DNA of 32,000 bases from Bauldia sp. (lineage in GTDB: Bacteria; Pseudomonadota; Alphaproteobacteria; Rhizobiales; Kaistiaceae), in assembly GCA_035548515.1 (NCBI GenBank), contig DASZSW010000026.1, positions 131,900-163,899 on the forward strand, read 5' to 3'. Made by a program: the position numbers and the translations under genes. A model generated the notes under the pieces. That model was not told the DNA's origin. It was given only the letters and a program-made list of their open reading frames with translations, and did no database searches. This document shows positions 3,003-23,398 of this stretch, piece after piece (within the stretch, counting starts at the first letter, position 1; every line of letters starts with the position of its first letter).

Positions 3003-3539
3003 GTGGTGACGCATCTGAATGGGGCTGGCGCCTTTCCCGAACTGGGGTCGGTGCGGCCGGATCATGCGGCGGCGGTGGCCGAGGCGCGGCGAATGGTCGA
3101 GGGGACGACGCTGTCGCAGCACGCTATCGCGCAGCAGCTTCGCGTTTCGGACAGCACCGTCTCGCTATGGAAGAAGCGGTGGGGATGGATGCGGCCGGAA
3201 GGGTCACCGGTGGCGCCGCCGGAGTTTGCGGGACGCGATACCGCGAAGGCGGCGGAGAAGCGGCGGGACGTGCTGGTCGGGCGCCTCTACCGCGTGTTTG
3301 ATCGGCAGCTGATGGATGTTGAATCGCGCGCGGCTGATGCCGTGGCGGTGACTGAGGAGAAAGATGCCCGCACTCTGGGCACGCTTGCACGGACGCTTGG
3401 AACGCTGATTGCGCTTGAAGCGGGAGGCGAGCGGGAGGACGGCGCACCGGCGGATGAACCGGAGCGATACGATCCCGATGAAGTCCGCGCGCGACTTGCG
3501 GCACGACTTGCTGGACTACGCGAAGAAGGAGACGATTGA
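3003..3539 (+). CDS. GTA g1-like protein (HTH, small-terminase-like position)
   Basis: First gene of the head cluster. TLSQHAIAQQLRVSDSTVSLWKKRW is an HTH-like segment. The start is uncertain (GTG 3003 or ATG 3093). The 3' end overlaps the terminase gene. Confidence 0.55.
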   Translation: MVTHLNGAGAFPELGSVRPDHAAAVAEARRMVEGTTLSQHAIAQQLRVSDSTVSLWKKRWGWMRPEGSPVAPPEFAGRDTAKAAEKRRDVLVGRLYRVFDRQLMDVESRAADAVAVTEEKDARTLGTLARTLGTLIALEAGGEREDGAPADEPERYDPDEVRARLAARLAGLREEGDD

Positions 3540-4803
3540 GGCGCGGCTGGCGACGCTCTCGCCGCGCGAGCGGGGCGAGCTTTCGCGGGCCTGGGATTTT
3601 CTGGCGCGGCGTGATCAATGGCCGCCCGAGGGCGACTGGCTAGTCTGGCTGCTGATGGGCGGACGCGGCTCGGGCAAGACGCGCACGGGCGCGGAGTGGG
3701 TGCGCGGCATGGCGCTCGGCCTTTGGCCGTTCGCCGACGCGCCGGTCGGGCGCATCGCGCTGGTTGGCGAGACGTTCGCAGACGTGCGTGAGGTGATGAT
3801 CGAGGGCGTGTCGGGTATCCTCGCGGTGCACGAGCGGCAGCGGCGGCCGACCTGGCTGCCGGCGCGGCGCATGATAGTGTGGGACAACGGCGCGCGGGCG
3901 CAGGCGTTTTCGTCGGAGGATCCGGAGTCGCTGCGCGGTCCGCAGTTTTCGGCGGCCTGGTCGGACGAGGCGGCGAAATGGAAACACGCCCAGGCGACGT
4001 GGGACATGCTGCAGTTCGGGCTGCGGCTGGGCGCGCGGCCGCGCCAGGTGGTGACCACGACGCCGCGGCCGGTACCGCTGATCCGGCGGCTGATGGAGGC
4101 GGCGGGAACGGTGGTGACGCGGTCGCGGACGGCCGACAACCGGGCGAACCTCGCGACGGGATTCCTGGCGCGCATGGCCGACCAGTATGGCGGCACGCGG
4201 CTGGGGCGGCAGGAGCTGGACGGCGAGCTGATCGAGGATCGCGCGGACGCGCTGTTCGTGCGCGACCAGATCGAGGCGGCGCGTGTCGCGGCGGCGCCGG
4301 AGATGCGGCGCGTGGTGGTGGCGGTCGACCCGCCGGCCTCGCGGCGCTCGGGCACGTGCGGGATCGTCGCGGCAGGATTGGGCAAGGACGGCTTCGGCTA
4401 TGTGCTCGCCGACGTTTCGGCGGCGGCGGCGCGGCCCACGGAATGGGCAGCTCGGGCGGTGGCGCTCTACCGGCGGCTCGGCGCCGACGCGCTGGTGGCG
4501 GAGGTGAACCAGGGCGGCGACATGGTGGCCGCCGTGATCCGCGAGGTCGACGCCGGCGTGCCGGTGAAGGAAGTACGGGCGACGCGCGGCAAGTACCTGC
4601 GCGCCGAGCCGGTGGCGGCCTTGTATGCGCAGGGACGTGTGCGCCATGCCGGCAAGTTCGCCGAGCTGGAAGACGAGATGGCGGATTTCGGATTGGACGG
4701 GCTGTCGGCGGGACGCTCGCCGGACCGGCTCGACGCGCTGGTGTGGGCGGTGACGGCGCTGATGCTGGGGGAGGGTGGGGAGCCGCGGATCGGGCGGGTC
4801 TAG
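3478..4803 (+). CDS. Phage/GTA terminase large subunit (RcGTA g2-like)
   Basis: Walker A motif LMGGRGSGKTRTGAEWV, preceded by W-x-F-x-ARRDQWPPEGDW as in GTA terminases. The ORF opens at 3409; ATG 3478 is chosen and the start is uncertain. Confidence 0.9.
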   Translation: MKSARDLRHDLLDYAKKETIEARLATLSPRERGELSRAWDFLARRDQWPPEGDWLVWLLMGGRGSGKTRTGAEWVRGMALGLWPFADAPVGRIALVGETFADVREVMIEGVSGILAVHERQRRPTWLPARRMIVWDNGARAQAFSSEDPESLRGPQFSAAWSDEAAKWKHAQATWDMLQFGLRLGARPRQVVTTTPRPVPLIRRLMEAAGTVVTRSRTADNRANLATGFLARMADQYGGTRLGRQELDGELIEDRADALFVRDQIEAARVAAAPEMRRVVVAVDPPASRRSGTCGIVAAGLGKDGFGYVLADVSAAAARPTEWAARAVALYRRLGADALVAEVNQGGDMVAAVIREVDAGVPVKEVRATRGKYLRAEPVAALYAQGRVRHAGKFAELEDEMADFGLDGLSAGRSPDRLDALVWAVTALMLGEGGEPRIGRV

Positions 4804-4887: not shown

Positions 4888-5127
4888 ATGGATATCGAGT
4901 TTGCGCGGCTTGCGATCCGGGCCGGGTTCAGCAGCGGACGCGAGCTGGAGACTTTGATTCACATCACGAAGGCGCACTGGGAGCCGGCGGCGCACAAGGA
5001 ATTCGCGATCGGGATTGCGCGTGCCACAGCGGAAATTCAAGCTGCGACGACGGAAAAAGCCGTCGCAGCATTCCCGGAGCTGGAAGCCGAGGTCGATGCC
5101 GCGGTAAACAAGTACGGGCGTTACTAG
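4888..5127 (+). CDS. Small hypothetical protein (79 aa)
   Basis: ATG preceded by gggagggcggg (a good SD). Ordinary amino-acid composition. No family recognised. Confidence 0.4.
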   Translation: MDIEFARLAIRAGFSSGRELETLIHITKAHWEPAAHKEFAIGIARATAEIQAATTEKAVAAFPELEAEVDAAVNKYGRY

Positions 5128-5153
5128 AAGCGCTCGGATCGGGGCAAATTCAC

Positions 5154-6137
5154 ATGCATTCGCGGCACGCGGCGCGGCTGGGGCGCGATATCTCGGCGAT
5201 CGGATTTGGCGCCTGGCAGATCGGCGGAAGCTGGGGCGAGGTTGCGGAGCATGACGCCGAGGCGGCGTTGGCCGCGGCGCTCGATGGCGGCGTGACGTTT
5301 GTCGATACGGCGGACGTGTACGGCGGCGGACGGTCGGAGGAGATCATCGGCCGCGTGTTGAAGCAGCGCGGCGGGCGGCGGCCGTTCGTCGCGACCAAGT
5401 GCGGGCGCGGCGGGACGAACAAGGCGGATTCGTACACGAAGGCGAACCTCGCCCAATGGGTGGAGGCGAGCCTGAAGCGGCTGCAGGTGGAGGCGCTGGA
5501 TCTCGTCCAGCTCCACTGCCCGCCGACGCAGGTCTATTACATGCCGGAGGTGTTCGGCGCGCTCGACGAGCTGGTCGTGGCGGGGAAGCTCCGCGCCTAC
5601 GGCGTCAGCGTCGAGAAGGTCGAGGAGGGACTGAAGGCGATCGAGTATCCGGGCGTTGCGAGCGTCCAGATCATCTACAACATCTTCCGCCAGCGACCGG
5701 CGCGGCTCTTCTTTCGCGAGGCGAAACGGCGGGGTGTTGCGGTGATCGCGCGCGTGCCGCTGTCGAGCGGGATGCTGACCGGCAAGCTGACGCGCGAGAC
5801 GAAGTTTGCGGAGGACGACCATCGCGACTTCAACCGCGAGGGCGAGTCGTTCGACAAGGGCGAGACGTTTTCCGGCGTGCCGTACGACGTCGGCCTCGAC
5901 GCGGTCGAGGAGCTGCGGCCGCTGGTGCCTGGCGGGGTGCCGATGGCGGCGTTCGCGCTCCGCTGGATATTGATGAACGACGCGGTGACGACGGTGATCC
6001 CGGGCGCGCGCAATGCCGCCCAGGCGAAGGGCAACGCGGCGGCCGACGACGTCGCGCCGCTGTCGGACAGGACGATGGCCGCGGTGGCGGAAGTTTACCA
6101 GCGGCGCATCGCGCCGTGGGTCGAGGCGCGGTGGTAG
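5154..6137 (+). CDS. Aldo/keto reductase family oxidoreductase
   Basis: MHSRHAARLGRDISAIGFGAWQIGG...VTFVDTADVYGGGRSEEIIGRVLK matches the AKR N-terminal signature. It is the last 327 codons of the 3879..6137 ORF-track entry; the ATG at 5154 is in frame. Confidence 0.9.
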   Translation: MHSRHAARLGRDISAIGFGAWQIGGSWGEVAEHDAEAALAAALDGGVTFVDTADVYGGGRSEEIIGRVLKQRGGRRPFVATKCGRGGTNKADSYTKANLAQWVEASLKRLQVEALDLVQLHCPPTQVYYMPEVFGALDELVVAGKLRAYGVSVEKVEEGLKAIEYPGVASVQIIYNIFRQRPARLFFREAKRRGVAVIARVPLSSGMLTGKLTRETKFAEDDHRDFNREGESFDKGETFSGVPYDVGLDAVEELRPLVPGGVPMAAFALRWILMNDAVTTVIPGARNAAQAKGNAAADDVAPLSDRTMAAVAEVYQRRIAPWVEARW

Positions 6138-6348: not shown

Positions 6349-7929
6349 ATGCGCATTCCATTTCTGGCGGCGCGCGGGAGCGCGGCGGACGACGTCGCGC
6401 GCCGTGAGCATGAGGCGAAGGCTTCGCGCGCCGGGCCGGTGATCGCGTGGCAGACGCAGCACCGCGCCGTGTGGACGCCGCGCGACTATGCGGCGCTGGC
6501 GCGCGAAGGGTTCGCCCGCAACGCGGTGGTCTATCGCTGCGTGCGCATGATCGCGGAGGCGACGGCGTCGGTGCCCTGGCTGCTCTACGAGGGCGAGGCG
6601 GAGCTGACGGAGCATCCGCTGCTGGCGCTGTTGGCGCGGCCGAACCGGCGGCAGGCCGGCGCGGATTTCCGCGAGTCGCTGGCCGGCTACCTGATGGTGG
6701 CGGGCAATGCGTACCTCGAAGCCGTGGATGTGGATGGCGCCGTGCGGGAACTGCACACGTTGCGGCCCGACCGCATGAAGGTGGTGCCGGGCAGCGACGG
6801 CTGGCCGGAGGCTTATGAGTACACCGCGGGCGGGCGCTCGGTGCGCTTCGCCGTGCCTGGCGAGGGCATGTCGCCGATCCTGCACCTTTCGCTGTTCCAT
6901 CCGCTCGACGATCACTACGGCTTCGCGCCGATGGACGCGGCGGCGGTGGCGCTCGACCTGCACAACGCTGCCGGCACCTGGAACAAGGCGCTGCTCGACA
7001 ATTCGGCGCGGCCATCCGGCGCGCTCATCTACCAGGCGAAGGACGGCGGCAATCTCTCCGCCGAGCAGTACGAACGGCTGAAGTCGGAACTGGAGACGGG
7101 CTTCACTGGCGCAGCGCGCGCCGGGCGGCCGCTGCTCTTGGAAGGCGGGCTCGACTGGAAGGCGATGGCGCTAACGCCCAAGGACATGGATTTCCTCGAG
7201 GCGAAGAACGGCGCCGCGCGCGAGATCGCGCTGGCCTTCGGCGTGCCGCCGATGCTGCTCGGCATCCCCGGCGACAACACCTACGCGAATTACAAGGAAG
7301 CCAACGCTGCGTTCTGGCGCGGCACGGTGCTGCCGCTGGCGGCGAAGATCGCGGGCGCGATCGGCGCGTGGCTGGCGCCGGCGTTCGGCGATGGGCTCAG
7401 GCTGTGGTTCGACGCGGACCAGGTCGAGGCGCTTGGCGCTGACCGCGAGGCGCTGTGGGCCCGCATCGCCGCGGCGGATTTCCTGACGCTGAACGAGAAG
7501 CGCGCGGCGGTTGGGTATGAGGCGCTCGCCGGCGGCGATGAGGTGAAGCGGGCGGATGCGGTGCACGCGCCGGAGCGCCGCTACAATCCGGACTGGGCCA
7601 GCCAGCCGCGTGCGCCGGCGGGCAGCGGTGAGGAAAGCGGGCGGTGGATCGACGCCGGGGTAGGTCGCAGAGATGAAGGCACGTCAGACGCGTCAGGCAC
7701 AGTGTCCGCCGCTACGCCAATTGTCGTTGCCGGCGGCTTTGAGCCTGGTCAGGAAAGCATGACGGTGCAGGATTTCGTGTCAGCATTCTGTAGAGCTGGC
7801 ATATACAGCGAGTTACCCGGACAATTCCTTGGGATGACCATTATCGACGTCATGGGCCTCGCCAAGTCTGGTGATGCCGCCGCTCGCACGTGTCTGAAGC
7901 TGCTCGGGCGCGATCGATTTCGAAAATAA
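6349..7929 (+). CDS. HK97-family phage/GTA portal protein (RcGTA g3-like) with a ~123-aa non-portal C-terminal extension
   Basis: ATG 6349 follows ggagag. The portal core runs from ...NAVVYRCVRMIAEATASVPW... through ...FLTLNEKRAAVGYEALAGGDEV (~400 aa). The ORF then continues to 7929 through a Pro/Gly linker and an AT-richer unrelated domain. Confidence 0.9.
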   Translation: MRIPFLAARGSAADDVARREHEAKASRAGPVIAWQTQHRAVWTPRDYAALAREGFARNAVVYRCVRMIAEATASVPWLLYEGEAELTEHPLLALLARPNRRQAGADFRESLAGYLMVAGNAYLEAVDVDGAVRELHTLRPDRMKVVPGSDGWPEAYEYTAGGRSVRFAVPGEGMSPILHLSLFHPLDDHYGFAPMDAAAVALDLHNAAGTWNKALLDNSARPSGALIYQAKDGGNLSAEQYERLKSELETGFTGAARAGRPLLLEGGLDWKAMALTPKDMDFLEAKNGAAREIALAFGVPPMLLGIPGDNTYANYKEANAAFWRGTVLPLAAKIAGAIGAWLAPAFGDGLRLWFDADQVEALGADREALWARIAAADFLTLNEKRAAVGYEALAGGDEVKRADAVHAPERRYNPDWASQPRAPAGSGEESGRWIDAGVGRRDEGTSDASGTVSAATPIVVAGGFEPGQESMTVQDFVSAFCRAGIYSELPGQFLGMTIIDVMGLAKSGDAAARTCLKLLGRDRFRK

Positions 7930-7943
7930 GGGGAGGAAAAAAT

Positions 7944-8186
7944 ATGACGCTAAACGGGATCAATGATCTCCTCGCCTTCGCCAATTTGCTGAGAGCAGCG
8001 AAAGTCGAATATCGTCTGGAGCACTCACGGCACGATGCGTTGACCATCCAGCTCTTCCTGATCGGCGCATTTATCGAGATCGACTTTTTCGATGACCACA
8101 TCGAGTACACTTTTTTCGAAGGAAGCGAGAGCGTACTGGACGATCAGGAACGGCTGTTTGCGCTGATCGACAACGCGAAGGGTTAG
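7944..8186 (+). CDS. Small acidic hypothetical protein (80 aa), an immunity-protein-like candidate
   Basis: ATG 7944 follows ggggagga. The gene starts 15 nt after the portal stop, is visibly AT-rich, and is acidic (DFFDDHIEYTFFEGSESVLDDQE). Confidence 0.55.
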   Translation: MTLNGINDLLAFANLLRAAKVEYRLEHSRHDALTIQLFLIGAFIEIDFFDDHIEYTFFEGSESVLDDQERLFALIDNAKG

Positions 8187-8196
8187 AACGAAACCC

Positions 8197-8424
8197 GCCG
8201 CTGACGGCGAAGATCGCGGGCGCGATCGGCGCCTGGCTGGCGCCGGCGTTCGGCGAGGGGCTCAGGCTGTGGTTCGACGCCGACCAGGTCGAGGCGCTTG
8301 GCGCTGACCGCGAGGCGCTGTGGGCCCGCATCGCCGCGGCGGATTTCCCGACGCTGAACGAGAAGCGCGCGGCGGTTGGGTATGAGGCGCTCGCCGGCGG
8401 CGATGAGGTGAAGCGGGCGGATGC
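8197..8424 (+). repeat. Second copy of the portal 3' end (matches 7332..7559)
   Basis: Manual base-by-base alignment gives 228 bp with 5 mismatches and no indels. Confidence 0.95.
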
Positions 8425-8692
8425 TGCGGCGTGGAAGTACAGCCCCGATCAGCCCCGCGTGCCGGCCGGGAGCCCGGAAGGCGGGCAGTGGACTGTTGGC
8501 GCGGAAGCACTCGCCGAAAATGATATTGGCCGCCTCGTAGCGGAGTTGCCGTGGTCCGGAGGCGGGAGAAAATGCGTTTACCGGTTTGACACGTTCAGTA
8601 TTTTGGTTGACGGACCGGTGAACTTTCGCTGCCAGGACTGGGTGCCCTGGTCGGCGGTGACGCACGGTCAAAGACTGAACGACAACTATTGA
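8198..8692 (+). other. Orphan module: start-less portal 3' fragment fused in frame to a different C-terminal domain
   Basis: The frame is open from the repeat (PLTAKIAGAIGAWLAPAFGEGLRLWFDADQVEAL...GGDEVKRADA) into new sequence (AAWKYSPDQPRVPAGSPEGGQWTVGAEALAENDIGRLVAELPWSGGGRKCVYRFDTFSILVDGPVNFRCQDW...). The only start-like codon is the internal GTG at 8408, which begins the ORF-track entry 8408..8692. Confidence 0.7.
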
Positions 8693-8703: not shown

Positions 8704-9039
8704 ATGACGGACGGTTTGCTCATCGCGACGTTCACGCTGTCCGCGGCAGCAAAGCATGGCGTGGAGCGCGTCAGAGAACTCTATCTTGCACGTTTTCCCG
8801 ACAATCCGCCGGCCGTGGCATCCGTTGCATGGGGGTATGTCGAAGGAAGCGATCCGCTTTCCGGGAAGGTCATCGTTGGATTTTACCAGCAATCCCAGTT
8901 TGCTGAAATCGAACATGGCATACAGGAAGTGTCGGGCGTGCCGCTGATCTATTTCACGACCGAGCAGTTCCATCCGCTGTTCGACGGAAAGGTGTTGGAC
9001 TACGAGGATGGGCAGGGGTTTTTTCTGAGGGCGCCGTAG
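8704..9039 (+). CDS. Hypothetical protein (111 aa), an immunity-like candidate paired with the orphan C-terminal domain
   Basis: ATG 8704 lies 12 nt after the orphan ORF stop, with aaagg upstream. Ordinary composition. No family recognised. Confidence 0.5.
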   Translation: MTDGLLIATFTLSAAAKHGVERVRELYLARFPDNPPAVASVAWGYVEGSDPLSGKVIVGFYQQSQFAEIEHGIQEVSGVPLIYFTTEQFHPLFDGKVLDYEDGQGFFLRAP

Positions 9040-9059: not shown

Positions 9060-9222
9060 ATGCTGCTCGGCATTCCCGGCGACAACACCTGCGCCAACTA
9101 CAAGGAAGCCAACGCCGCCTTCTGGCGCGGCACGGTGCTTCCGCTGACGGCGAAGATCGCCGGCGCGATCGGCGCCTGGCTGGCGCCGGCGTTCGGCGAT
9201 GGCCTAGGCTGTGGGTTCGATG
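9060..9222 (+). repeat. Third, degenerate copy of the portal 3' region (matches ~7252..7412)
   Basis: Manual alignment shows about a dozen substitutions plus two 1-nt indels near the 3' end. It translates as MLLGIPGDNTCANYKEANAAFWRGTVLPLTAKIAGAIGAWLAPAFGDGL, against portal MLLGIPGDNTYANYKEANAAFWRGTVLPLAAKIAGAIGAWLAPAFGDGL. Confidence 0.9.
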
Positions 9223-9235
9223 ATGGGAACAGGAC

Positions 9236-9421
9236 TTGGACGACATCACGCGCACGATCAGCGAGCGCGGCGATCTTGCGCACCTGGTGCTCTTCCTTTG
9301 GGCGAGCGGGGCGAGCGGGTTGCTCGTGTGGGTGCTGAAGGAGCTCGCCGCTTCCAACCGGCGGTTCAACGACTTCGTTTCCGAGATCGCGCGGCTGAAC
9401 CGGTTTTTCGATCGGGATTAG
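9236..9421 (+). CDS. Small putative membrane protein (61 aa) at the position of RcGTA g3.5
   Basis: TTG start from the ORF track. It has a hydrophobic core (LAHLVLFLWASGASGLLVWVL) followed by an amphipathic tail. Assignment to the g3.5 family rests on position only. Confidence 0.3.
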   Translation: MDDITRTISERGDLAHLVLFLWASGASGLLVWVLKELAASNRRFNDFVSEIARLNRFFDRD

Positions 9422-9538: not shown

Positions 9539-9816
9539 TGACCGTTGGCGGGGTGACGACCTCGCGGGTTCTGGACCAAGGGAAACCTAGATGAAGCATC
9601 TCCTGGCGCGCTTTGGCGCGGGGCCGGGCGCGGATCATCGCGCCGTGTTTTCCGGATTTGCGCGGCGGCTGTCGCGCGTGATCGCGCTGAAGCGCGCCGC
9701 GCCGAAGGTGCGGGCGGTGGCGGGATGAATGCAACGCGAACTGCCTCACCAACGCTGACAGTGAAGTTGAGCCGGTGAAGCAAGCGATGCGCCGCTTCCC
9801 GGAAATTCGAGGTCAC

Positions 9817-10338
9817 ATGAAACACGAAACGAAATTCGCACGCGTGGCGCTCTCGAGCGTTGACGCGGACGGGACGTTTACCGGCTACGCGTCGCTGTTC
9901 GGCAAGACCGACCTTGGCCGCGACGTGGTGATGCCGGGTGCGTTCCGCGCTTCGCTGGCGAAGCGTGGAGCGGGCGGCGTGAAGATGCTGTTCCAGCATG
10001 ATCCCAACCAGCCGATCGGCGTGTGGACGGATATCCGCGAGGACAGCCAGGGGCTGTTCGTCAAGGGGCGGCTGACGGCCGACGTGGCTCGCGCACGCGA
10101 GGTGCTGGCGCTGATGCGCGCCGGCGCGCTCGACGGCTTGTCGATTGGCTATCGGACGGTGCGCGGCAAGACGGACGCCAAGACCGGCGTACGGCGGCTA
10201 ATGGAAGTCGACCTGTGGGAGATTTCCGTCGTGACGTTCCCGATGCAGCCCGAGGCGCGCGTGTCGTCGGTGAAGGCGCTGCAGCTCGCAGCTCTCATTC
10301 GCCGGGCGACGGCGATGCTGCGGGACGCGACCCGCTAG
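9817..10338 (+). CDS. HK97-family prohead protease (RcGTA g4-like)
   Basis: FTGYASLFGKTDLGRDVVMPGAF...MLFQHDPNQPIG...LDGLSIGY...WEISVVTFP is typical of the S78 prohead protease. ATG 9817 follows gaggt; GTG 9775 and ATG 9787 are alternative starts. Confidence 0.9.
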   Translation: MKHETKFARVALSSVDADGTFTGYASLFGKTDLGRDVVMPGAFRASLAKRGAGGVKMLFQHDPNQPIGVWTDIREDSQGLFVKGRLTADVARAREVLALMRAGALDGLSIGYRTVRGKTDAKTGVRRLMEVDLWEISVVTFPMQPEARVSSVKALQLAALIRRATAMLRDATR

Positions 10339-10491: not shown

Positions 10492-11748
10492 ATGATGACC
10501 CAGGAAATGAACGCGGCGCCGGAGATGAAATCCGGCGAGGCGACGGAAGCTTTTAGCGAATTCATGCACGCCTTCGAGTCGTTCAAGGAGGCGAACGACC
10601 GTCGGTTGGCCGAGATCGACCGCAAGATGGCGGCCGATGTCGTGACCAACGAGAAGGTGGAGCGCATCAACCGCGCGCTCGATGAACAGAAGCGGGCACT
10701 CGACCAGATGCTGCTGAAGGCCCGGCGTCCGGCTCTCGGCGGCGGCGCGGCGACAAGTGCCGCGGCCTTGGAGCACAAGGCGGCGTTCGAGGCGTACATC
10801 CGCGGCGGTGCCGAGGAGGGGCTGCGCAGCTTCGAGCAGAAGGCTCTGGCGGTCTCCACCAACAGCGGCGCCGACGGCGGCTACACGGTGCCCGATGACG
10901 TCGAGCGCGAGATTGGCCGCCGCCTGGCGTCGATCTCGCCGATCCGCGGCATCTCGGGCGTCAAGCAGATCTCCGGCAACGTCTACAAGAAGCCGTTCGC
11001 GACGAGCGGGGCGGCCACCGGCTGGGTTGCTGAGACGGACTCGCGCACGCAGACCAACACGCCGACGCTCGCCGAGCTGCAGTTCCCGGCGATGGAGCTC
11101 TACGCCATGCCGGCGGCGACCGGCACGCTGCTCGACGACAGCGCGGTGAATATCGACGAATGGATCGCGAGCGAGGTCGAGCTGGCGTTCGCCACGCAGG
11201 AGGGTACGGCGTTCGTCAACGGCGATGGCGACGGCCAGCCGACCGGCTTTCTGCATGGCACCAAGATCGCAGAAGCTTCGTGGGCGTGGACCAAGATCGG
11301 CTACGTCAAGACCGGCGTGTCGGCCGGCTTCGCGGCGGACGGCGGCGGTTACGACAACCTGGTCGACCTCGTCTACACGCTGAAGTCGGGCTACCGGCAG
11401 AACGCGCACTTCGTCATGAACCGCAAGACGCAAGGCGCCGTACGCAAGCTGAAGGACGAGAACGACAACTACATCTGGGCGCCGGCGGCCACTCTCGGCG
11501 CGCCCGCGAGCCTGATGGGCTTCCCGATCGCGGAGTCGGAGGACATGCCGGACATCGGTGCCGACTCGTACTCGATCGCGTTCGGCGATTTCCTGCACGG
11601 CTACCTGATCGTCGACCGCATCGGCGTACGCGTGCTGCGCGATCCGTATTCGGCCAAGCCCTACGTGCTGTTCTACACGACCAAGCGCGTCGGCGGCGGC
11701 GTCCAGGATTACGACGCCATCAAGCTCCTGAAATTCGGCACGGCCTAG
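10492..11748 (+). CDS. HK97-family major capsid protein (RcGTA g5-like)
   Basis: ATG 10492 follows aaaggaaa. It has an N-terminal coiled delta-domain (EFMHAFESFKEANDRRLAEIDRKM...) followed by an HK97-fold body (...GGYTVPDDVEREI...FVNGDGDGQPTGF...). Confidence 0.92.
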   Translation: MMTQEMNAAPEMKSGEATEAFSEFMHAFESFKEANDRRLAEIDRKMAADVVTNEKVERINRALDEQKRALDQMLLKARRPALGGGAATSAAALEHKAAFEAYIRGGAEEGLRSFEQKALAVSTNSGADGGYTVPDDVEREIGRRLASISPIRGISGVKQISGNVYKKPFATSGAATGWVAETDSRTQTNTPTLAELQFPAMELYAMPAATGTLLDDSAVNIDEWIASEVELAFATQEGTAFVNGDGDGQPTGFLHGTKIAEASWAWTKIGYVKTGVSAGFAADGGGYDNLVDLVYTLKSGYRQNAHFVMNRKTQGAVRKLKDENDNYIWAPAATLGAPASLMGFPIAESEDMPDIGADSYSIAFGDFLHGYLIVDRIGVRVLRDPYSAKPYVLFYTTKRVGGGVQDYDAIKLLKFGTA

Positions 11749-19800: not shown

Positions 19801-20727
19801 GTGCTTCTCGACCTGCCGCTGCTTACCGGGAGCGAGCCCGGATATGCGCCTCGGGTTGCCGTGTTCGCCGCGCCGTGGCCCGGCGCGATCGCACTTTCGG
19901 TCGGAACCGCCGACACCGGCTACGTGCCGCGACAGGCGATCGAACGGCGTGCGGTGATGGGCGAGCTTACGTCGGAACTGGCGCCGGGACCGGTTGCGCG
20001 CTGGGACCGGGCGGCCTCGGTCACAGTTCGGCTTTACGGCGGTGCGCTGGCGGGCGCGCCCGAACTTTCGGTGCTCAACGGCGCCAACGTCGCCGCGATT
20101 GGCTCAAGCGAGACCGGATACGAGGTCGTGCAGTTCAGCGCTGCCACGCTGATCGACACGCGGACCTGGCGGTTGGAAGGCCTGCTACGCGGACAGGCCG
20201 GAACGGGAGACATCGCGGCAGCAGGCCATGACGCCGGTGCACGATTTGTGCTGCTCGATCGCGCCGTCGTCCCGCTGTCGTTATCGGAGGCGGAGGCCGG
20301 GCTTGGGCTGACGCTGCGCTGTGGTGCGGCGGGAGCGCCGTACGATCCCGATGTATTCGCCGACGTGACGATTACGGCCGCCCGTCGCGGTCTGCGCTGC
20401 CTGGCGCCGGTGCATGCGCGGGCGCATCGCGATGAAGGCACTGGTGACGTGACGTTGTCCTGGATACGGCAGACGCGCATCGGCGGCGATGCTTGGGAGC
20501 CGGTCGAGGTGCCGCTTGGCGAGACGAGCGAGGCGTATTCCGTTGCCATTGGCGATGGCATGACGACCTTCCGCACGGTGACGGCGGCTTCGCCGTCACT
20601 ACTTTATCCGGCCGCCGACCAGCTTGCGGACTTCGGCGCGCTGCCGGACGAAATCACTATCGCAATCAGCCAGATAAGCCCGACCGAGGGACCGGGTTCT
20701 GGCGCATTTTTTGCGCTCAATGTCTGA
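16831..20727 (+). CDS. Large host-specificity/baseplate protein with a GTA TIM-barrel-like domain (RcGTA g15-like)
   Basis: GTG 16831 overlaps the g14 TAG. The N-terminus has a glycine-zipper (GSLFGPLGTIVGRAVGGLAGYAIDQ). Also present are RIPQLSFEV and WFTEAGCPAIDKGPNQPNVF. The protein is ~1298 aa. Confidence 0.9.
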   Translation: MATLVLQAAGAAIGSLFGPLGTIVGRAVGGLAGYAIDQSLFGEHRTIEGPRLADLTVQTSREGAPIPRLYGRVRISGQVIWATRFEETVSDVGEGGKGGGSGTTLRTYAYFANFAVGLCEGPIARIGRVWADGKPFDLSTVTCRIYRGDAAQDVDSLIEAKQGDAPAYRDTAMIVFERLPLENFGNRIPQLSFEVIRPVDGIETAVRAVSMIPGSTEFGYDPEPVTSTITPGSSTTVNRHVDGVRTDWQASVDELQAVCANAGRVGLVTAWFGNDLRAGECTLKPAVVDRTTVTSPYTWSAAGMTRDTARLVSTFESKAAFGGTPADASLVRAIRDLNERDIKVTFYPFIMMDVPPGNGRDDPYGGAEQAAYPWRGSMTLSVAPGLPGSPDKTTAAADEVAAFVGTAAVDDFHLSGDSVVYTGPDEWSFRRFILHYAWLCKAAGGVDAFLIGSELRGLSTVRSAASTYPFVTALVALADDVKGILGGATTVTYGADWSEYFGHHPDDGSGDVFFHLDPLWASAAVGCVGIDNYMPLSDWRDGSEHLDAADWDNGRDAAYLRSNIAAGEGYDWYYASDADRAVQVRTPITDGGGGKPWVFRYKDLVGWWSNRHFNRPGGVESGTHTAWVPQSKPIWFTEAGCPAIDKGPNQPNVFYDAKSSASALPYFSNGLRDDLVQRRYIAATLAYWNPDAPDFDDAANPESSAYAGRMVDHAAIHLWTWDARPYPAFPLYTDVWSDGGNWDRGHWLTGRLGALTAESLAAAILADYGITDADIGDLDGVVDGFLIGEVTSARGALEPLAQLLAFEGHESGDRFAVTRRGRAPKLDFTGADLVEDKDKPVISIRRAQETELPAEIGIGFSDPLADYRPTSVSSRRLVGGSRRSVSTDTGAVLSHAVAGGLADTMLQDLWAGRESIALALPQRTLALEPADVCTLDIDGDVRTILVTRIEDAGLRRIEARTIEPDILAPVPAASRVVAPPVAVSASRPEVVLLDLPLLTGSEPGYAPRVAVFAAPWPGAIALSVGTADTGYVPRQAIERRAVMGELTSELAPGPVARWDRAASVTVRLYGGALAGAPELSVLNGANVAAIGSSETGYEVVQFSAATLIDTRTWRLEGLLRGQAGTGDIAAAGHDAGARFVLLDRAVVPLSLSEAEAGLGLTLRCGAAGAPYDPDVFADVTITAARRGLRCLAPVHARAHRDEGTGDVTLSWIRQTRIGGDAWEPVEVPLGETSEAYSVAIGDGMTTFRTVTAASPSLLYPAADQLADFGALPDEITIAISQISPTEGPGSGAFFALNV

Positions 20728-23398
20728 TCCTTTGGCGACGAATAACCTGGCGCTTCCGTATATCGCGGCAGCCCAGGCGCAGAAGCACGTCACGCACAAC
20801 GAGGCGCTGCGGAAGCTGGACACGCTGGTGCAGCTGGCGGTCCTCGACTCCATGCTGACGACACCACCCGGCTCGCCGGCCGAAGGCGACCGCTACATCG
20901 TGGCGGCATCGGCGACTGGCGACTGGGCCGATCACGACGCCGAGGTCGCGACCTGGGTGGACGGGCTGTGGGAATTCGCCATGCCCGGCGAGGGGTGGCT
21001 GGCTTTCGACCGCGCGGCCGAGGCGATCCTCGTTTTCCTGAGCGGCGCGTGGGCGCCGGCGGCTGCGGCTCCGTCCGGCGCGCTGGGCATGCTCGGCGTC
21101 AACACGACCGCGGATACCACCAACCGGCTTGCGGTGCGCTCCGAGGCGGCGCTGTTCACCGCGGTGGAAGCCGCCGACGGCGGCAGCGGCGACATCCGCG
21201 TCGCTCTCAACAAGGAGAGCGACGCGGATACGGCATCGCTCGTGCTCCAGAGCGGTTGGTCGGGGCGCGCTGAGATCGGGCTCGCCGGCGACACCGATCT
21301 GGTAGTCAAGGTTTCTGCCGACGGCAGCAGCTGGATCGAGGCGATACGGATCGACAAGGATACGGGCCTTGCGGCGATCCTGTACGACAACGCCGTCTCT
21401 GGGCTTGGCGCGACGACGGTCCAGGATGCGATCGACGAAGTCGCCGCCGGTGGTGGTGGCGGCGGCAGCGCGGTGGTCAGCGTATTCGGCCGCACCGGCG
21501 CGGTGGCTGCCACGAGCGGCGACTACGCCGCCAGCGATGTCGACAATGACAGCGGTGTGTCCGGCGCGAGCGTCAAGGATGCGCTCGACGCGCTGGCAAG
21601 CGCAAAACAGGCCGTGGATGCCGATCTCACCGCCATAGCGGCGCTGTCACCAACCAACGACGACGTCATCCAGCGCAAGGCCGGCGCCTGGACGAACCGG
21701 ACGATGGCTCAGGTCAAGACCGACCTGGCGCTGACGAAGGGCGACGTCGGGCTCGGCTCCGTCACTAACGACGCGCAGCTCAAGGCGGCGTCCAATCTCT
21801 CCGATCTCGGCAGCGCGTCGACGGCCCGCACCAACCTCGGTGTTGCGATCGGGACCGACGTGCAGGCGTACGACGCCGATCTTGCGGCGATCGCGGGACT
21901 GTCGCCGTCGAACGACGACGTCATCCAGCGCAAGGCTGGTACCTGGACCAATCGCACGATGGCGCAGGTGAAGACGGACCTTGCGCTGACGAAGAGCGAC
22001 GTTGGCCTCGGCTCCGTCACTAACGACGCGCAGCTCAAGGCGGCGTCCAATCTCTCCGATCTCGGTAGCGCGTCGACGGCCCGCACGAATCTCGGCCTGG
22101 GCGACTCGGCAACGAAAAACACCGGCACGACGACAGGCACCGTTGCGACCGGCGACGACAGCCGCATTACCGGTGCGGCGCAGAAGGCGTCGAACCTATC
22201 GGACCTCGCCAACGCCGCCACGGCGTTCGGCAATATCAAGCAGGCGGCCGACACGAGCACGACCGGTGTGGTGGAGCTCGCGACGGTAGCCGAGGCGGGG
22301 ACCGGCACCGATACGGTACGCGCCGTGACGCCGGCCGGCCTGTTCCCGGCGCAGGCGTCCGTGGCGTCGGCATCGACGTGCGACATCGGCGCGGCAGCTT
22401 CGTCCCAGGTGACGATCAGCGGTACGACGACGATCACCGCCTTCGACAATGTCGCCGCGGGGATCGTGCGCGAGGGCGTCTTCGAGGGCGCGCTGACGCT
22501 GACCCACAATGCGACCAGCCTGAAGCTGCCCGGTGGCGCGAGCATCACGACCGCCACGAACGATCGGTTCCGCGCGCTTTCGCTGGGATCGGGCAACTGG
22601 ATCGTGCTCGCCTATCAGCGCGCGGATGGCACCGCGATCGCAGGCGGCTCGGGGACCAGCGTGCCGATTGGCACGGTAGTGCCGTACGCCGGCATCACCG
22701 CGCCGGCGAACTATCTCTTCTGCTACGGCCAGAACGTCAGCCGCTCGACGTATGCGACGCTGTTCGCAGCGCTGCGTGTCTCGGCGACCGTCACGATCAC
22801 GATCGCGTCGCCGGGTGTCGTTTCGTGGACTGGCCATCCGCTCAAGGTCAACGACCCCGTGGTCTTCCGTACGACGGGCGCGCTGCCGACGGGCATCACC
22901 GCCGGCACGGTCTACTACGTCATTTCGGCGGGGTATGGCTCGAACAGCTTCCGCATCTCGGCGACGGTCAGCGGCTCGGCGGTCAACACGTCCGGATCAC
23001 AGTCGGGCACCCACACCGGCGTTTACGCCCCGTATGGCGACGGTGACGGATCGACGACGTTTGGCGTCCCCGATCTGCGCGGCCGCGTTGTGGCCGGCCG
23101 CGACGATATGGGAGGCACCAGCGCTAATCGGCTCGTCGGCTCGGCGACTGGCTCGCTTGACGGCGATGTTCTGGGCAAGACCGGCGGCGAGGAGACGCAC
23201 CAGCTGACGACCGGCGAACTGGCGACACACACGCACAGTGTGCCGACGTCGTTTGGCACCGGCGGCGATTCGGCCAATCCGGGCCCCGGTAACGGCGGTG
23301 GATCGTCTGCGACAAGCGGATCGTCCGGCAGCAATACGGCGCACAACACCGTCCAGCCGACGATGATCCTCAACTACATCATCTATGCGGGAGCGTAA
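20720..23398 (+). CDS. Tail fibre protein: DUF2793 N-terminus, repeat-containing shaft, phage tail-collar C-terminus
   Basis: LALPYIAAAQAQKHVTHNEALRKLD marks DUF2793. The shaft contains FGRTGAV-type fibre repeats. The collar domain is marked by TFGVPDLRGRVVAG...GGEETHQLTTGELATHTHS...HNTVQPTMILNYIIYAG. The gene overlaps g15 by 8 nt. Confidence 0.85.
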   Translation: MSDPLATNNLALPYIAAAQAQKHVTHNEALRKLDTLVQLAVLDSMLTTPPGSPAEGDRYIVAASATGDWADHDAEVATWVDGLWEFAMPGEGWLAFDRAAEAILVFLSGAWAPAAAAPSGALGMLGVNTTADTTNRLAVRSEAALFTAVEAADGGSGDIRVALNKESDADTASLVLQSGWSGRAEIGLAGDTDLVVKVSADGSSWIEAIRIDKDTGLAAILYDNAVSGLGATTVQDAIDEVAAGGGGGGSAVVSVFGRTGAVAATSGDYAASDVDNDSGVSGASVKDALDALASAKQAVDADLTAIAALSPTNDDVIQRKAGAWTNRTMAQVKTDLALTKGDVGLGSVTNDAQLKAASNLSDLGSASTARTNLGVAIGTDVQAYDADLAAIAGLSPSNDDVIQRKAGTWTNRTMAQVKTDLALTKSDVGLGSVTNDAQLKAASNLSDLGSASTARTNLGLGDSATKNTGTTTGTVATGDDSRITGAAQKASNLSDLANAATAFGNIKQAADTSTTGVVELATVAEAGTGTDTVRAVTPAGLFPAQASVASASTCDIGAAASSQVTISGTTTITAFDNVAAGIVREGVFEGALTLTHNATSLKLPGGASITTATNDRFRALSLGSGNWIVLAYQRADGTAIAGGSGTSVPIGTVVPYAGITAPANYLFCYGQNVSRSTYATLFAALRVSATVTITIASPGVVSWTGHPLKVNDPVVFRTTGALPTGITAGTVYYVISAGYGSNSFRISATVSGSAVNTSGSQSGTHTGVYAPYGDGDGSTTFGVPDLRGRVVAGRDDMGGTSANRLVGSATGSLDGDVLGKTGGEETHQLTTGELATHTHSVPTSFGTGGDSANPGPGNGGGSSATSGSSGSNTAHNTVQPTMILNYIIYAGA
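21617..22096 (+). repeat. In-frame tandem duplication (255-bp period, 85 aa) inside the tail fibre gene
   Basis: D-A-DL-AIA-LSP-NDDVIQRKAG-WTNRTMAQVKTDLALTK-DVGLGSVTNDAQLKAASNLSDLGSASTARTNLG occurs twice (21617.. and 21872..). It includes a long identical nucleotide run ggctccgtcactaacgacgcgcagctcaaggcggcgtccaatctctccgatctcgg. Confidence 0.9.

Follow-up and report, generated by a model that had tools for sequence, protein, structure and literature searches.

A conserved Pro/Gly-rich motif precedes variable portal-anchored tips in an RcGTA-type gene cluster of Bauldia sp. and recurs in phage head proteins

Two mutually unrelated protein tips encoded in an RcGTA-type head-tail cluster of Bauldia sp., one fused to the C-terminus of the portal protein and the other located in an orphan cassette downstream, are each preceded by the same Pro/Gly-rich motif of ~20 residues, with the consensus [KR]-[YF]-x-P-x-Q-P-R-x-P-x-G-x(3-4)-G-G-[QR]-[WF]. 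When a profile of this motif was searched against a library of 1.84 billion proteins, 5,595 protein clusters were retrieved at E<=1e-3, including 1,086 at E<=1e-10. We put at roughly 45% the probability that the motif is a disordered recognition element at the leading edge of modules carried in the heads of tailed phages and GTAs, and that the Bauldia sp. locus is a portal-anchored, toxin-like system.

Results

Organization of the portal locus

The window, that is, the whole 32,000-nt stretch of DNA analyzed, contains a head-tail cluster that was recognized by profile searches and by its gene order and families. NF048004 (GTA_megatron) matched with 1732 bits against a cutoff of 800, and TIGR02218, TIGR02217, and TIGR02219 were also matched. 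Genes for the hub, distal tail, and tape measure are among those of the cluster, with RcGTA_tape scoring 155 bits, under its cutoff of 220. PF04586, PF05065, and Terminase_6 were all detected, with terminase, portal, protease, and capsid in RcGTA order. Judged by its genes, this is an RcGTA-type head-tail cluster, with the same gene order and families as the cluster around the RcGTA g3 portal.

The portal gene (6355..7929; like all features described here on the + strand) encodes a 526-aa protein in which an HK97-family portal (residues ~52-395) is followed by a C-terminal extension of ~130 aa. Pfam PF04860 matched residues 60-388 (2.1e-91), TIGR01537 covers residues 52-395, and the alignments to its closest relatives start at residue 1. 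The C-terminal ~75 codons of the portal make up the reference copy of a 228-nt direct repeat (7332..7559). Beyond this constant region follow motif copy 1 (7576..7647) and a spacer with the first tip, tip1 (7648..7926), which has a small helical domain in its last ~60 aa and where the GC content goes down to ~53-57%. An 80-aa ORF (7945..8186), the first candidate immunity gene, separates the portal gene from the orphan cassette. The orphan frame is open from 8189 to a stop at 8692, and the cassette starts with the second copy of the repeat (8197..8424, 98% identical to the first), continues with motif copy 2 (8432..8491), and ends with tip2 and its stop codon (8492..8692), tip2 being a small beta-rich domain. 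Next are a 111-aa ORF (8704..9039), the second candidate immunity gene, and a truncated third portal fragment (9060..9220), which is 89% identical to 7252-7412 in a DNA alignment and in which the reading frame departs after ...APAFGDGL. This fragment is followed by a 61-aa ORF (9236..9421), presumably RcGTA g3.5, with homologues after the portal in most of 80 related loci (tblastn). Further downstream are a prohead serine protease of the S78 family (9775..10338; Pfam PF04586, 2e-36), the candidate processing enzyme, and the major capsid protein of the HK97 fold family (10492..11748; Pfam PF05065, 1.9e-89).

Two copies of the motif

In the portal frame the junction is translated as ...APERRYNPDWASQPRAPAGSGEESGRWIDAG..., within which motif copy 1 reads RRYNPDWASQPRAPAGSGEESGRW; the orphan frame gives ...AAAWKYSPDQPRVPAGSPEGGQWTVG..., with copy 2 reading WKYSPDQPRVPAGSPEGGQW. 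Both motifs lie 13-22 nt past the end of the repeat. The initial annotation had described two peptides with a common junction motif, and both are present where it located them, but its start for the portal copy (7579) is one codon late, the true start being 7576, and its orphan copy was off by one base. It had also taken the tips to be unrelated beyond the repeat, in agreement with our comparison of the sequences after the motifs (BLASTP E=0.89). The two downstream small ORFs are likewise unrelated to each other.

The regular expression QPR.P.G.{2,8}G.W matched exactly twice when all six frames of the window were scanned, whereas 300 dinucleotide-preserving shuffles gave 0.003 matches on average; no further match was found in any of the six frames, the capsid precursor included. 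The shuffle test and the profile search together rule out a chance origin of the motif pair. Four synonymous changes and one replacement separate the two copies over the eight codons encoding Q-P-R-A/V-P-A-G-S, indicating that their likeness is held at the protein level and is no remnant of the DNA repeat. The same pattern was seen among the motif instances at large, where Q, R, P, G, G, and W are invariant or nearly so and the invariant R, P, and G positions use all synonymous codons, in source contigs of 41-70% GC. The conservation is therefore not one of DNA; as read from codon usage, the motif is conserved by protein-level selection and the DNA itself varies.

Single-chain AF2 models gave pLDDT values of 42-59 across the motif (<50 in the portal copy and 51-59 in the orphan copy) vs 84-91 in the tips (84-89 for tip1, at residues ~55-117 of the extension, and 86-91 for tip2), and the motif is thus predicted to be intrinsically disordered. 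A Gly/Ser-rich spacer, separate from the motif, sits after it. Foldseek returned no significant PDB fold match for tip1 or tip2, and sequence searches of the PDB gave no match either with the motif profile or with the commonest tip, 'HHIVE'. The motif has no entry in Pfam, NCBIfam, or the PDB, and the 80-aa and 111-aa downstream ORFs matched no family, and no known immunity family, in Pfam or NCBIfam.

Tips and partner genes in related loci

About nine in ten of the 80 related portals stop 0-25 aa past ...NEKRAAVGY.P..GG, ahead of where the motif would be, and are without it. A conserved portal C-terminal tail, the simple alternative named in the initial annotation, is thereby ruled out. Unlike these RcGTA-type portals without extension, the portal in the window bears a tip, and an orphan cassette and a displaced remnant of the portal gene lie between it and the 61-aa ORF. 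Among the 80 related loci, 17 have the motif ahead of variable tips, with 21 matches on the gene strand vs one spurious match on the opposite strand, and the 21 tips of these clusters fall into 8 families; 162 viral tips fall into 65. The suggested enrichment of the motif before variable C-terminal tips was borne out, the domains found behind it including PF18431 RNase A, CdiA_C, Zeta, ADP-ribosyltransferase, and PemK. Fusions of portal, motif, and tip were found in L038, L074, and L016, the tip in L038 being a PF18431 RNase A toxin of the CdiA-CT type; PF18431 is also found in L075, within a standalone protein.

Pairs of tip and downstream gene were found again in at least seven other loci. 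Homologues of tip1 are encoded in L016, L001, L106, L141, L158, and L159, and in each of these a homologue of the 80-aa ORF lies directly 3' of the tip1 homologue, with two such pairs in both L001 and L141. Tip2 has homologues in P0001-P0004 and in L173, where a homologue of the 111-aa ORF lies directly 3' of the tip (49% identity, E 6e-30). Repeated portal C-termini, forming orphan arrays, were observed in ~19 other loci. One and the same tip family can carry differing motif variants, as seen for tip1 in the window and in P0005 and for tip2 in the window and in P0001. In L016 the portal, tip1, and the gene behind it are retained although the motif is degenerate, which may mean that it can be dispensed with or that this copy is decaying. 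The motif was also found outside head clusters, e.g. in L003 amid DUF2019 genes.

Distribution of the motif among phage proteins

The top profile matches contain 2-11 motif copies per protein. In phage polyvalent proteins the motif is present at every module boundary, between ART, Zeta, TopoIB, Acb1, and NUDIX modules; Portal_Mu or MuF is present in these proteins, and no conjugation domains were among the families reported for them. A portal domain was identified in 35 of 59 long viral motif ORFs (PF04860 in 29, PF06381 in 3, PF06074 in 2, and PF07230 in 1) and MuF in 3 of the 59, as well as in 2 of 55 multi-motif proteins, which confirms the mention of QPR-type linkers in portal and MuF proteins in the initial annotation. 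In total, six portal Pfam families accompany the motif, four as fusions and two in an adjacent portal gene. Modules with the motif occur fused, split, and reordered, and an S78-like protease is encoded in 28 of 33 viral loci carrying an HK97-type portal.

Standalone genes adjoining portal and MuF genes, eight in L132 and five in L154, also begin directly with the motif, and 17 of 25 Met-led motif instances are preceded by an in-frame stop at a distance of <=20 codons. The L154 module is SPP1-like (SPP1_portal, Phage_min_cap2, Phage_scaffold, and capsid), and no protease gene was found in its portal-to-capsid interval. The demarcation of polymorphic-toxin type that had been proposed for the junction thus holds for the variable tips and toxin domains, the layout, and the orphan; the label 'constant/variable junction' is too narrow, since the motif is also located between all polyvalent modules and opens standalone cargo genes.

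Other searches were less productive. A word-indexed homology search with a 47-aa motif profile gave matches all <=83 aa and was unfit for an architecture table. Among cultured phages, tblastn with short motif peptides returned nothing usable, probably owing to low-complexity filtering and short query length, matches to whole multi-motif proteins were confined to the enzymatic domains, and an Octadecabacter phage protein that was checked has no motif; these searches found no tie between the motif and an experimentally studied phage. Literature searches with motif fragments as strings gave nothing relevant, and searches by topic turned up no report of polymorphic toxins anchored to a GTA or a portal.

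Discussion

Proposed role of the motif

In published portal structures the C-terminus faces the capsid interior. With the graft at this end of the portal, the locus would constitute a portal-anchored polymorphic toxin-like system, in which exchangeable cassettes of tip and downstream gene have been added to an RcGTA-type portal with the motif at the graft point. Tip1 would then be the expressed tip and tip2 a silent orphan, and recombination across the 228 nt of 98% identity could exchange the two. The motif would be a ligand of some conserved part of the head, with the portal vertex as the most plausible partner, and such binding could place cargo at the exit and/or have it threaded out with the DNA. 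In portal fusions, the motif would also mark the cutting site for tip release, as a tip still tethered would be unable to leave the particle, and freed tips would act on recipients without the cognate downstream gene. For cargo covalently fused to the portal, a docking tag looks redundant. Because the tips have no recognisable toxin fold and the partner ORFs match no immunity family, we infer toxicity of tip1 and tip2 only from the architecture of the locus and by analogy with tips found at this position elsewhere. The broader proposition, that the motif is a universal portable tag of tailed phages and GTAs by which a conserved portal-vertex component loads cargo and/or threads it out, and that RcGTA-type particles of Hyphomicrobiales deliver polymorphic toxins in a kin-discriminating manner, is possible but on balance doubtful.

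The initial annotation had offered a protease site or a flexible linker as possible functions, and either reading taken alone is weakened by the data. The motif might instead serve solely as the site that the prohead maturation protease (the S78 enzyme in this cluster) recognizes or cleaves, and the protease would then free tips and split polyvalent proteins in the head. We consider this unlikely, although several observations speak for it: delivery of portal-fused tips requires release, the S78 gene lies 1.8 kb downstream, most viral loci with an HK97-type portal also carry such a protease, and polyvalent proteins have the motif at each module boundary. The internal proteins of T4, whose capsid-targeting sequence is removed by gp21, offer a precedent. 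However, in standalone proteins that start with the motif a cut would take off just 2-5 residues, the SPP1-like module L154 carries the motif without a protease gene from portal to capsid, and the capsid precursor, which HK97 suggests as the substrate of this protease, is without it. Moreover, 20 residues with six invariant positions far exceed the typical needs of a prohead protease site.

Predicted disorder, a position always at module boundaries, modules that are fused, split, and reordered, and the pairing of one tip family with different motif variants would all suit a flexible Pro/Gly hinge without a specific partner, its coding sequence serving as a joint for recombinational shuffling. 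Against such a joint, which we regard as improbable, the six near-invariant residues are spelled with all synonymous codons in contigs of widely different GC content, so that it is not the DNA that is conserved, and the recombination homology in the window is the portal repeat and not the motif. The motif is moreover followed by a Gly/Ser-rich spacer of its own, and a hinge would have no point at the first residues of a protein. Trivial similarity, arising by chance, from low complexity, or from a conserved portal tail, can practically be dismissed: high-GC DNA does give Pro/Gly/Ala/Arg-rich translations in all frames, but the two matches far exceed the shuffled expectation, most related portals lack the motif, and the number of significant clusters in the protein library is large (5,595).

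Comparison with known systems

The VENN motif of CdiA and PxxxxDPxGL of Rhs proteins are likewise short conserved boundary sequences before a variable toxin, and orphans there also keep a stretch of the constant region. The motif described here is unrelated to them in sequence, belongs to a different delivery machinery, and shows no sign of autoproteolysis; direct reading found neither sequence at the junctions in the window, and the Pfam search gave no CdiA or Rhs domain. To our knowledge, the VENN and Rhs motifs are never N-terminal leaders of standalone proteins and never in tandem in one protein. The capsid-targeting sequence of T4, a short N-terminal peptide, directs internal proteins to the prohead, whose protease then cuts it off. 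Its likeness to the motif as a putative head-targeting peptide is conceptual only, as there is no sequence similarity and the motif spans six portal Pfam families and sits internally too.

The locus shares with the MuF polymorphic toxins of temperate phages (Zhang et al. 2012, PMC3482391; Jamet et al. 2017, PMC5576092) an N-terminal head structural domain, a variable C-terminal toxin or toxin-like part, an adjacent gene (here a candidate immunity gene), and a position in the terminase/portal packaging module. Here, by contrast, the anchor is a portal (PF04860) and the host element an RcGTA-type cluster; the window protein has Phage_portal as its sole domain, without PF04233, PF06152, or MuF3/4, and does not belong to the MuF toxin family. 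The words 'linker', 'motif', and 'cleavage' are absent from Jamet et al. (2017; PMC5576092). Compared with polymorphic toxins sensu Zhang et al. (2012), the constant N-terminal region is represented by the portal domain, whose last ~75 codons are repeated in the orphan at 98% identity, the variable tips include known toxin domains across the related loci, with the tips in the window lacking a recognisable fold, and an orphan cassette with a piece of the constant region is present at 8197-8692. Polyvalent proteins were described as head-packaged multi-effector proteins, with PBECR, 2H, and InPase fused to portal/MuF domains (Iyer et al. 2017, PMC5512222); that paper makes no mention of an inter-module motif, and 'linker', 'conserved motif', and 'glycine' are absent from it. 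The window protein has the recurrent inter-module motif of these proteins, but it combines a portal with a single small tip, next to a candidate immunity gene and an orphan, following the logic of polymorphic toxins, and thus falls outside a class with two or more effector modules.

Implications

We know of little understanding of how cargo is selected for, and exits from, HK97- and SPP1-type heads outside T4, P22, and P1. A single 20-residue element in >5,000 protein clusters offers a concrete, mutable handle on cargo packaging and exit, and it may be of use as a tag for loading foreign proteins into the particles of phages or GTAs. In annotation, the motif would help to set module limits in thousands of 'hypothetical' phage proteins. 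The combination of portal-anchored tips, orphan cassettes, and partner genes points to toxin delivery by some GTAs as a means of telling kin from non-kin, which bears on the long-standing question of why GTAs are maintained. If RcGTA-type particles do use the motif as a tag to deliver such toxins, GTAs would be kin-discriminating weapons besides gene-transfer devices.

Organization of the portal locus

In this computational analysis, Pfam and NCBIfam domain searches identified an RcGTA-type head-tail cluster in the window, comprising a large terminase (3409-4803), an HK97-family portal (6355-7929), an S78 prohead protease (9775-10338), a capsid (~10492-11748), connectors, a TP901-type tail, a short tape measure, an Rcc01695-type distal tail, a hub, an NlpC peptidase and a megatron of 1,297 aa (NF048004, 1732 bits). 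Directly after the megatron lies an 895-aa DUF2793/phage tail Collar ORF (20711-23398) with chromosomal genes beyond it, which looks like a cluster-linked GTA tail-fibre gene.

The portal domain extends to about residue 395 of 526, and the last ~130 residues are made up of the Pro/Gly-rich motif, a spacer and a ~60-aa helical domain, tip1 (AF2 pLDDT 84-89), followed by an 80-aa ORF (7945-8186). An orphan then combines 75 codons of the portal C-terminus with a second motif and a beta-rich tip2 (AF2 pLDDT 86-91), and is itself followed by a 111-aa ORF (8704-9039). A third portal fragment (9060-9220), 89% identical to 7252-7412 and truncated after ...APAFGDGL, has the appearance of the portal gene's original 3' end, displaced and bearing a deletion. 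It adjoins a 61-aa ORF (9236-9421), presumably the equivalent of RcGTA g3.5, homologues of which are usually found next after the portal in related clusters. The GC profile falls from ~72% to 52-58% over the tips and small ORFs. Judged from the sequence, the plain reading of the locus is an insertion of putative cassettes at the portal gene's 3' end that pushed the original end aside. The gap between terminase and portal (4888-6137) contains a 79-aa ORF and an aldo/keto-reductase-like ORF (5160-6137; matches well under NCBIfam cutoffs), and in the related locus L001 this position is occupied by a GGDEF/EAL gene; the terminase-portal junction thus looks like another insertion site.

Translation confirmed the two junction peptides of the initial annotation, with positions corrected by one codon in the portal and one base in the orphan: RRYNPDWASQPRAPAGSGEESGRW in the portal frame (7576-7647) and WKYSPDQPRVPAGSPEGGQW in the orphan frame (8432-8491), which is open from 8189 to a stop at 8692. 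Each copy starts 13-22 nt beyond one unit of a 228-nt direct repeat (7332-7559 and 8197-8424, 98% identical), and sequence comparison found no relation between the two tips beyond them, as had been claimed. A regular expression for the shared core gave two matches in the six frames of the window, where 300 dinucleotide-preserving shuffles predict 0.003. Four synonymous changes and one replacement separate the eight QPR(A/V)PAGS codons of the two copies, whose likeness is therefore kept at the protein level.

Properties of the motif

The motif and the following spacer are predicted to be disordered (AF2 pLDDT 42-59), and the tips are predicted with confidence. The Q, R, P, G, G and W/F positions are invariant or nearly so, and every synonymous codon is in use at the invariant positions, in contigs of 41-70% GC. 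Single proteins can contain the main form together with a variant, W-[DN]-E-x-x-H-P-R-x-P-x-G-...-G-G-x-F. The motif was found in no chain by a PDB sequence search, is spanned by no model in Pfam-A or NCBIfam, and gave nothing in full-text literature searches for motif strings. Homology searches that included cultured phages found no link to any experimentally studied phage. Word searches of the text found no mention of it in the MuF-toxin paper (PMC5576092) or in the polyvalent-protein paper (PMC5512222), which does note portal-effector fusions.

Related GTA-type clusters

The window was compared with 80 related loci from genome collections, belonging to Hyphomicrobiales and allies (best identity 81%). 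About nine in ten of their portals end 0-25 residues past ...NEKRAAVGY.P..GG without the motif, which rules out the possibility, raised in the initial annotation, that it is merely part of a conserved portal tail. A loose regular expression matched 21 times on the gene strand, spread over 17 of the 80 loci, and once, spuriously, on the other strand; it misses the variant QPRAAAG of L074 and the degenerate junction of L016. Portal fusions carry PF18431 (CdiA-CT RNase A toxin domain) after the motif in L038, a 200-aa tip in L074 and a tip of the tip1 family in L016. The remaining matches are standalone ORFs located after the portal, between protease and capsid, or after the capsid, in which an N-terminal helix or 'RW[LM]RPDAxRW' repeats are followed by the motif, a Gly-rich spacer and a variable C-terminus; PF18431 is also present in one of these (L075). 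Tandem 'RW[LM]RPDAxRW[LI][RK]PDA' was observed at the N-terminus of standalone motif proteins in L036, L037, L052-L057, L064, L069 and L075 (e.g. L036:10176-11072). This module is without any family match, and may be a head-targeting domain.

The 21 tips fall into 8 families. The commonest (12 of 21; L036, L037, L043, L054, L057, L064, L005, L011 and others) has the signature 'GYDxHHIVEQ...NLVRIPxLKHxxIxxWY' and looks like a nuclease, with no sequence match in Pfam, NCBIfam or PDB. In six loci (L016, L001, L141, L106, L158 and L159), tip1 homologues have a homologue of the 80-aa ORF behind them, and in L173 a tip2 homologue has one of the 111-aa ORF. Orphan arrays of repeated portal C-terminal fragments were observed in ~19 loci. 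In one viral contig (L088:571-7053), four motif-bearing ORFs spaced 1.6-1.8 kb, with five portal C-terminal fragments in all, form a tandem array of near-identical portal-C/motif/tip units. On a Bauldia sp. chromosome (L016:6182-6827), the tip1-family portal fusion is followed by the homologue of the 7945-8186 ORF, and the degenerate junction (…QSTPAGESG…) could be due to decay or a sequencing indel, or to a dispensable motif. In the closest portal relatives (L004, L006-L010, L012), the portal stop and the 9236-9421 ORF homologue lie 3-5 kb or more apart; the intervening DNA gave no regex match to the motif and may hold other cargo types. The motif protein of L003 (21-2289) has three DUF2019 genes around it and is not part of any head cluster, which suggests detached toxin/immunity-like islands with the same motif.

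Distribution among phages and polyvalent proteins

Window and database sequences were combined into a 39-position motif profile, which, scored against 1.84 billion representative proteins, matched 5,595 clusters at E<=1e-3 (1,086 at <=1e-10). The best 150 of these 5,595 were examined, and the top matches are proteins of 500-4,000 aa with 2-11 motif copies at module boundaries, the modules between copies including ADP-ribosyltransferases, Zeta toxin, topoisomerase IB, Acb1, NUDIX and glutamine deamidase. Some have Portal_Mu or MuF, and conjugation domains were not among the families reported for the multi-motif proteins, which are 'polyvalent proteins' of the phage class.

At the DNA level, an exact degenerate pattern encoding QPRVPAG...GG[QR]W matched in at least 120 viral contigs. 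In 59 long ORFs among the matches listed, with the motif >200 residues from the ORF start, we identified portal domains (29 PF04860, 3 Phage_portal_3, 2 Portal_Mu and 1 Portal_T4), MuF (3 ORFs) and C-terminal domains including RNAse_A_bac (5), Ribonuclease (2), CdiA_C, Zeta, ADPrib_exo_Tox and PemK; the 162 viral tips among the matches listed fall into 65 families. Similar linkers in portal and MuF proteins, mentioned in the initial annotation, were thereby verified, and the motif is enriched at constant/variable junctions of other proteins.

The motif was also found at protein starts. In the viral contig L132, a terminase and a DUF4055-type portal are followed by six motif-led small genes (one starting MAFDPKQPRAPKGSPNGGQW...), MuF, two more motif-led genes and a scaffold-like gene. 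The L154 module runs from a terminase through two tagged genes to an SPP1-type portal, and continues with two further tagged genes (one GNAT), a MuF2 protein, one tagged gene, Phage_scaffold and capsid. Requiring Met two codons ahead of the motif gave 25 full instances, 17 of which have an in-frame stop within 20 codons upstream, so that the motif is the true N-terminus there; it also lies near the start (residues 10-40) in about half of the top polyvalent matches. The motif thus leads each cargo module, whether standalone, strung in series or fused to portal or MuF. A constant/variable junction, as first proposed, describes its position ahead of variable tips, but not its role as N-terminal leader of standalone genes.

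Possible function of the motif

The best reading of a conserved, disordered 20-mer ahead of every cargo module is a putative short linear recognition motif. Both motif genes and motif fusions are associated with the portal/MuF neighbourhood, with four portal families as fusions and two more beside tagged genes, and the ejection proteins of P22, T7 and SPP1 are seated at the portal. For these reasons we tentatively favour a conserved feature of the portal vertex as the binding partner (probability about 0.45), where docking would position the cargo for exit or thread it out. A passive hinge or recombination joint would fit the predicted disorder and the module shuffling, but is improbable given the invariant residues with their synonymous-codon diversity, the separate Gly/Ser spacer and the N-terminal location.

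A portal-tethered tip would be unable to leave the particle uncut, and the motif may therefore double as, or adjoin, a cut site, for which the S78 protease would be the obvious cutter. That the motif is purely a protease site fits the portal fusions and polyvalent proteins, but seems doubtful in view of the N-terminal tags, the L154 module, where a protease gene is absent between portal and capsid, and the capsid precursor of the window, which is without the motif. The degenerate junction of L016 is a caution that some fusions may do without the motif.

Comparison with known systems

By its sequence, the layout is a predicted polymorphic-toxin architecture with the portal as constant region, functionally like a MuF-type polymorphic toxin anchored on the portal, in which the tips of the window would be toxic and their downstream ORFs would confer immunity. 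Structure searches of predicted models found no recognisable fold for tip1 or tip2, and the 80-aa and 111-aa ORFs gave no family match in Pfam or NCBIfam. Many post-motif tips of ~60 aa are rich in conserved cysteines (P0006, P0008, P0010, P0013 and P0014), which hints at disulfide-stabilised domains, possibly active outside the cytoplasm. If RcGTA releases its DNA into the recipient periplasm, such small tips might, speculatively, act there.

The window protein differs from MuF toxins in having no MuF domain; it shares the connector motif with polyvalent proteins, but its single tip sets it apart from these in the strict sense. VENN and Rhs junctions are unrelated to that of the window. Head-anchored toxins and portal-effector fusions are already known. 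What appears to be new is the motif itself as defined, a very widespread, unannotated element, its role as module leader beyond a mere junction, and the occurrence, within RcGTA-type clusters, of tip/partner cassettes that are anchored on the portal and accompanied by orphans.
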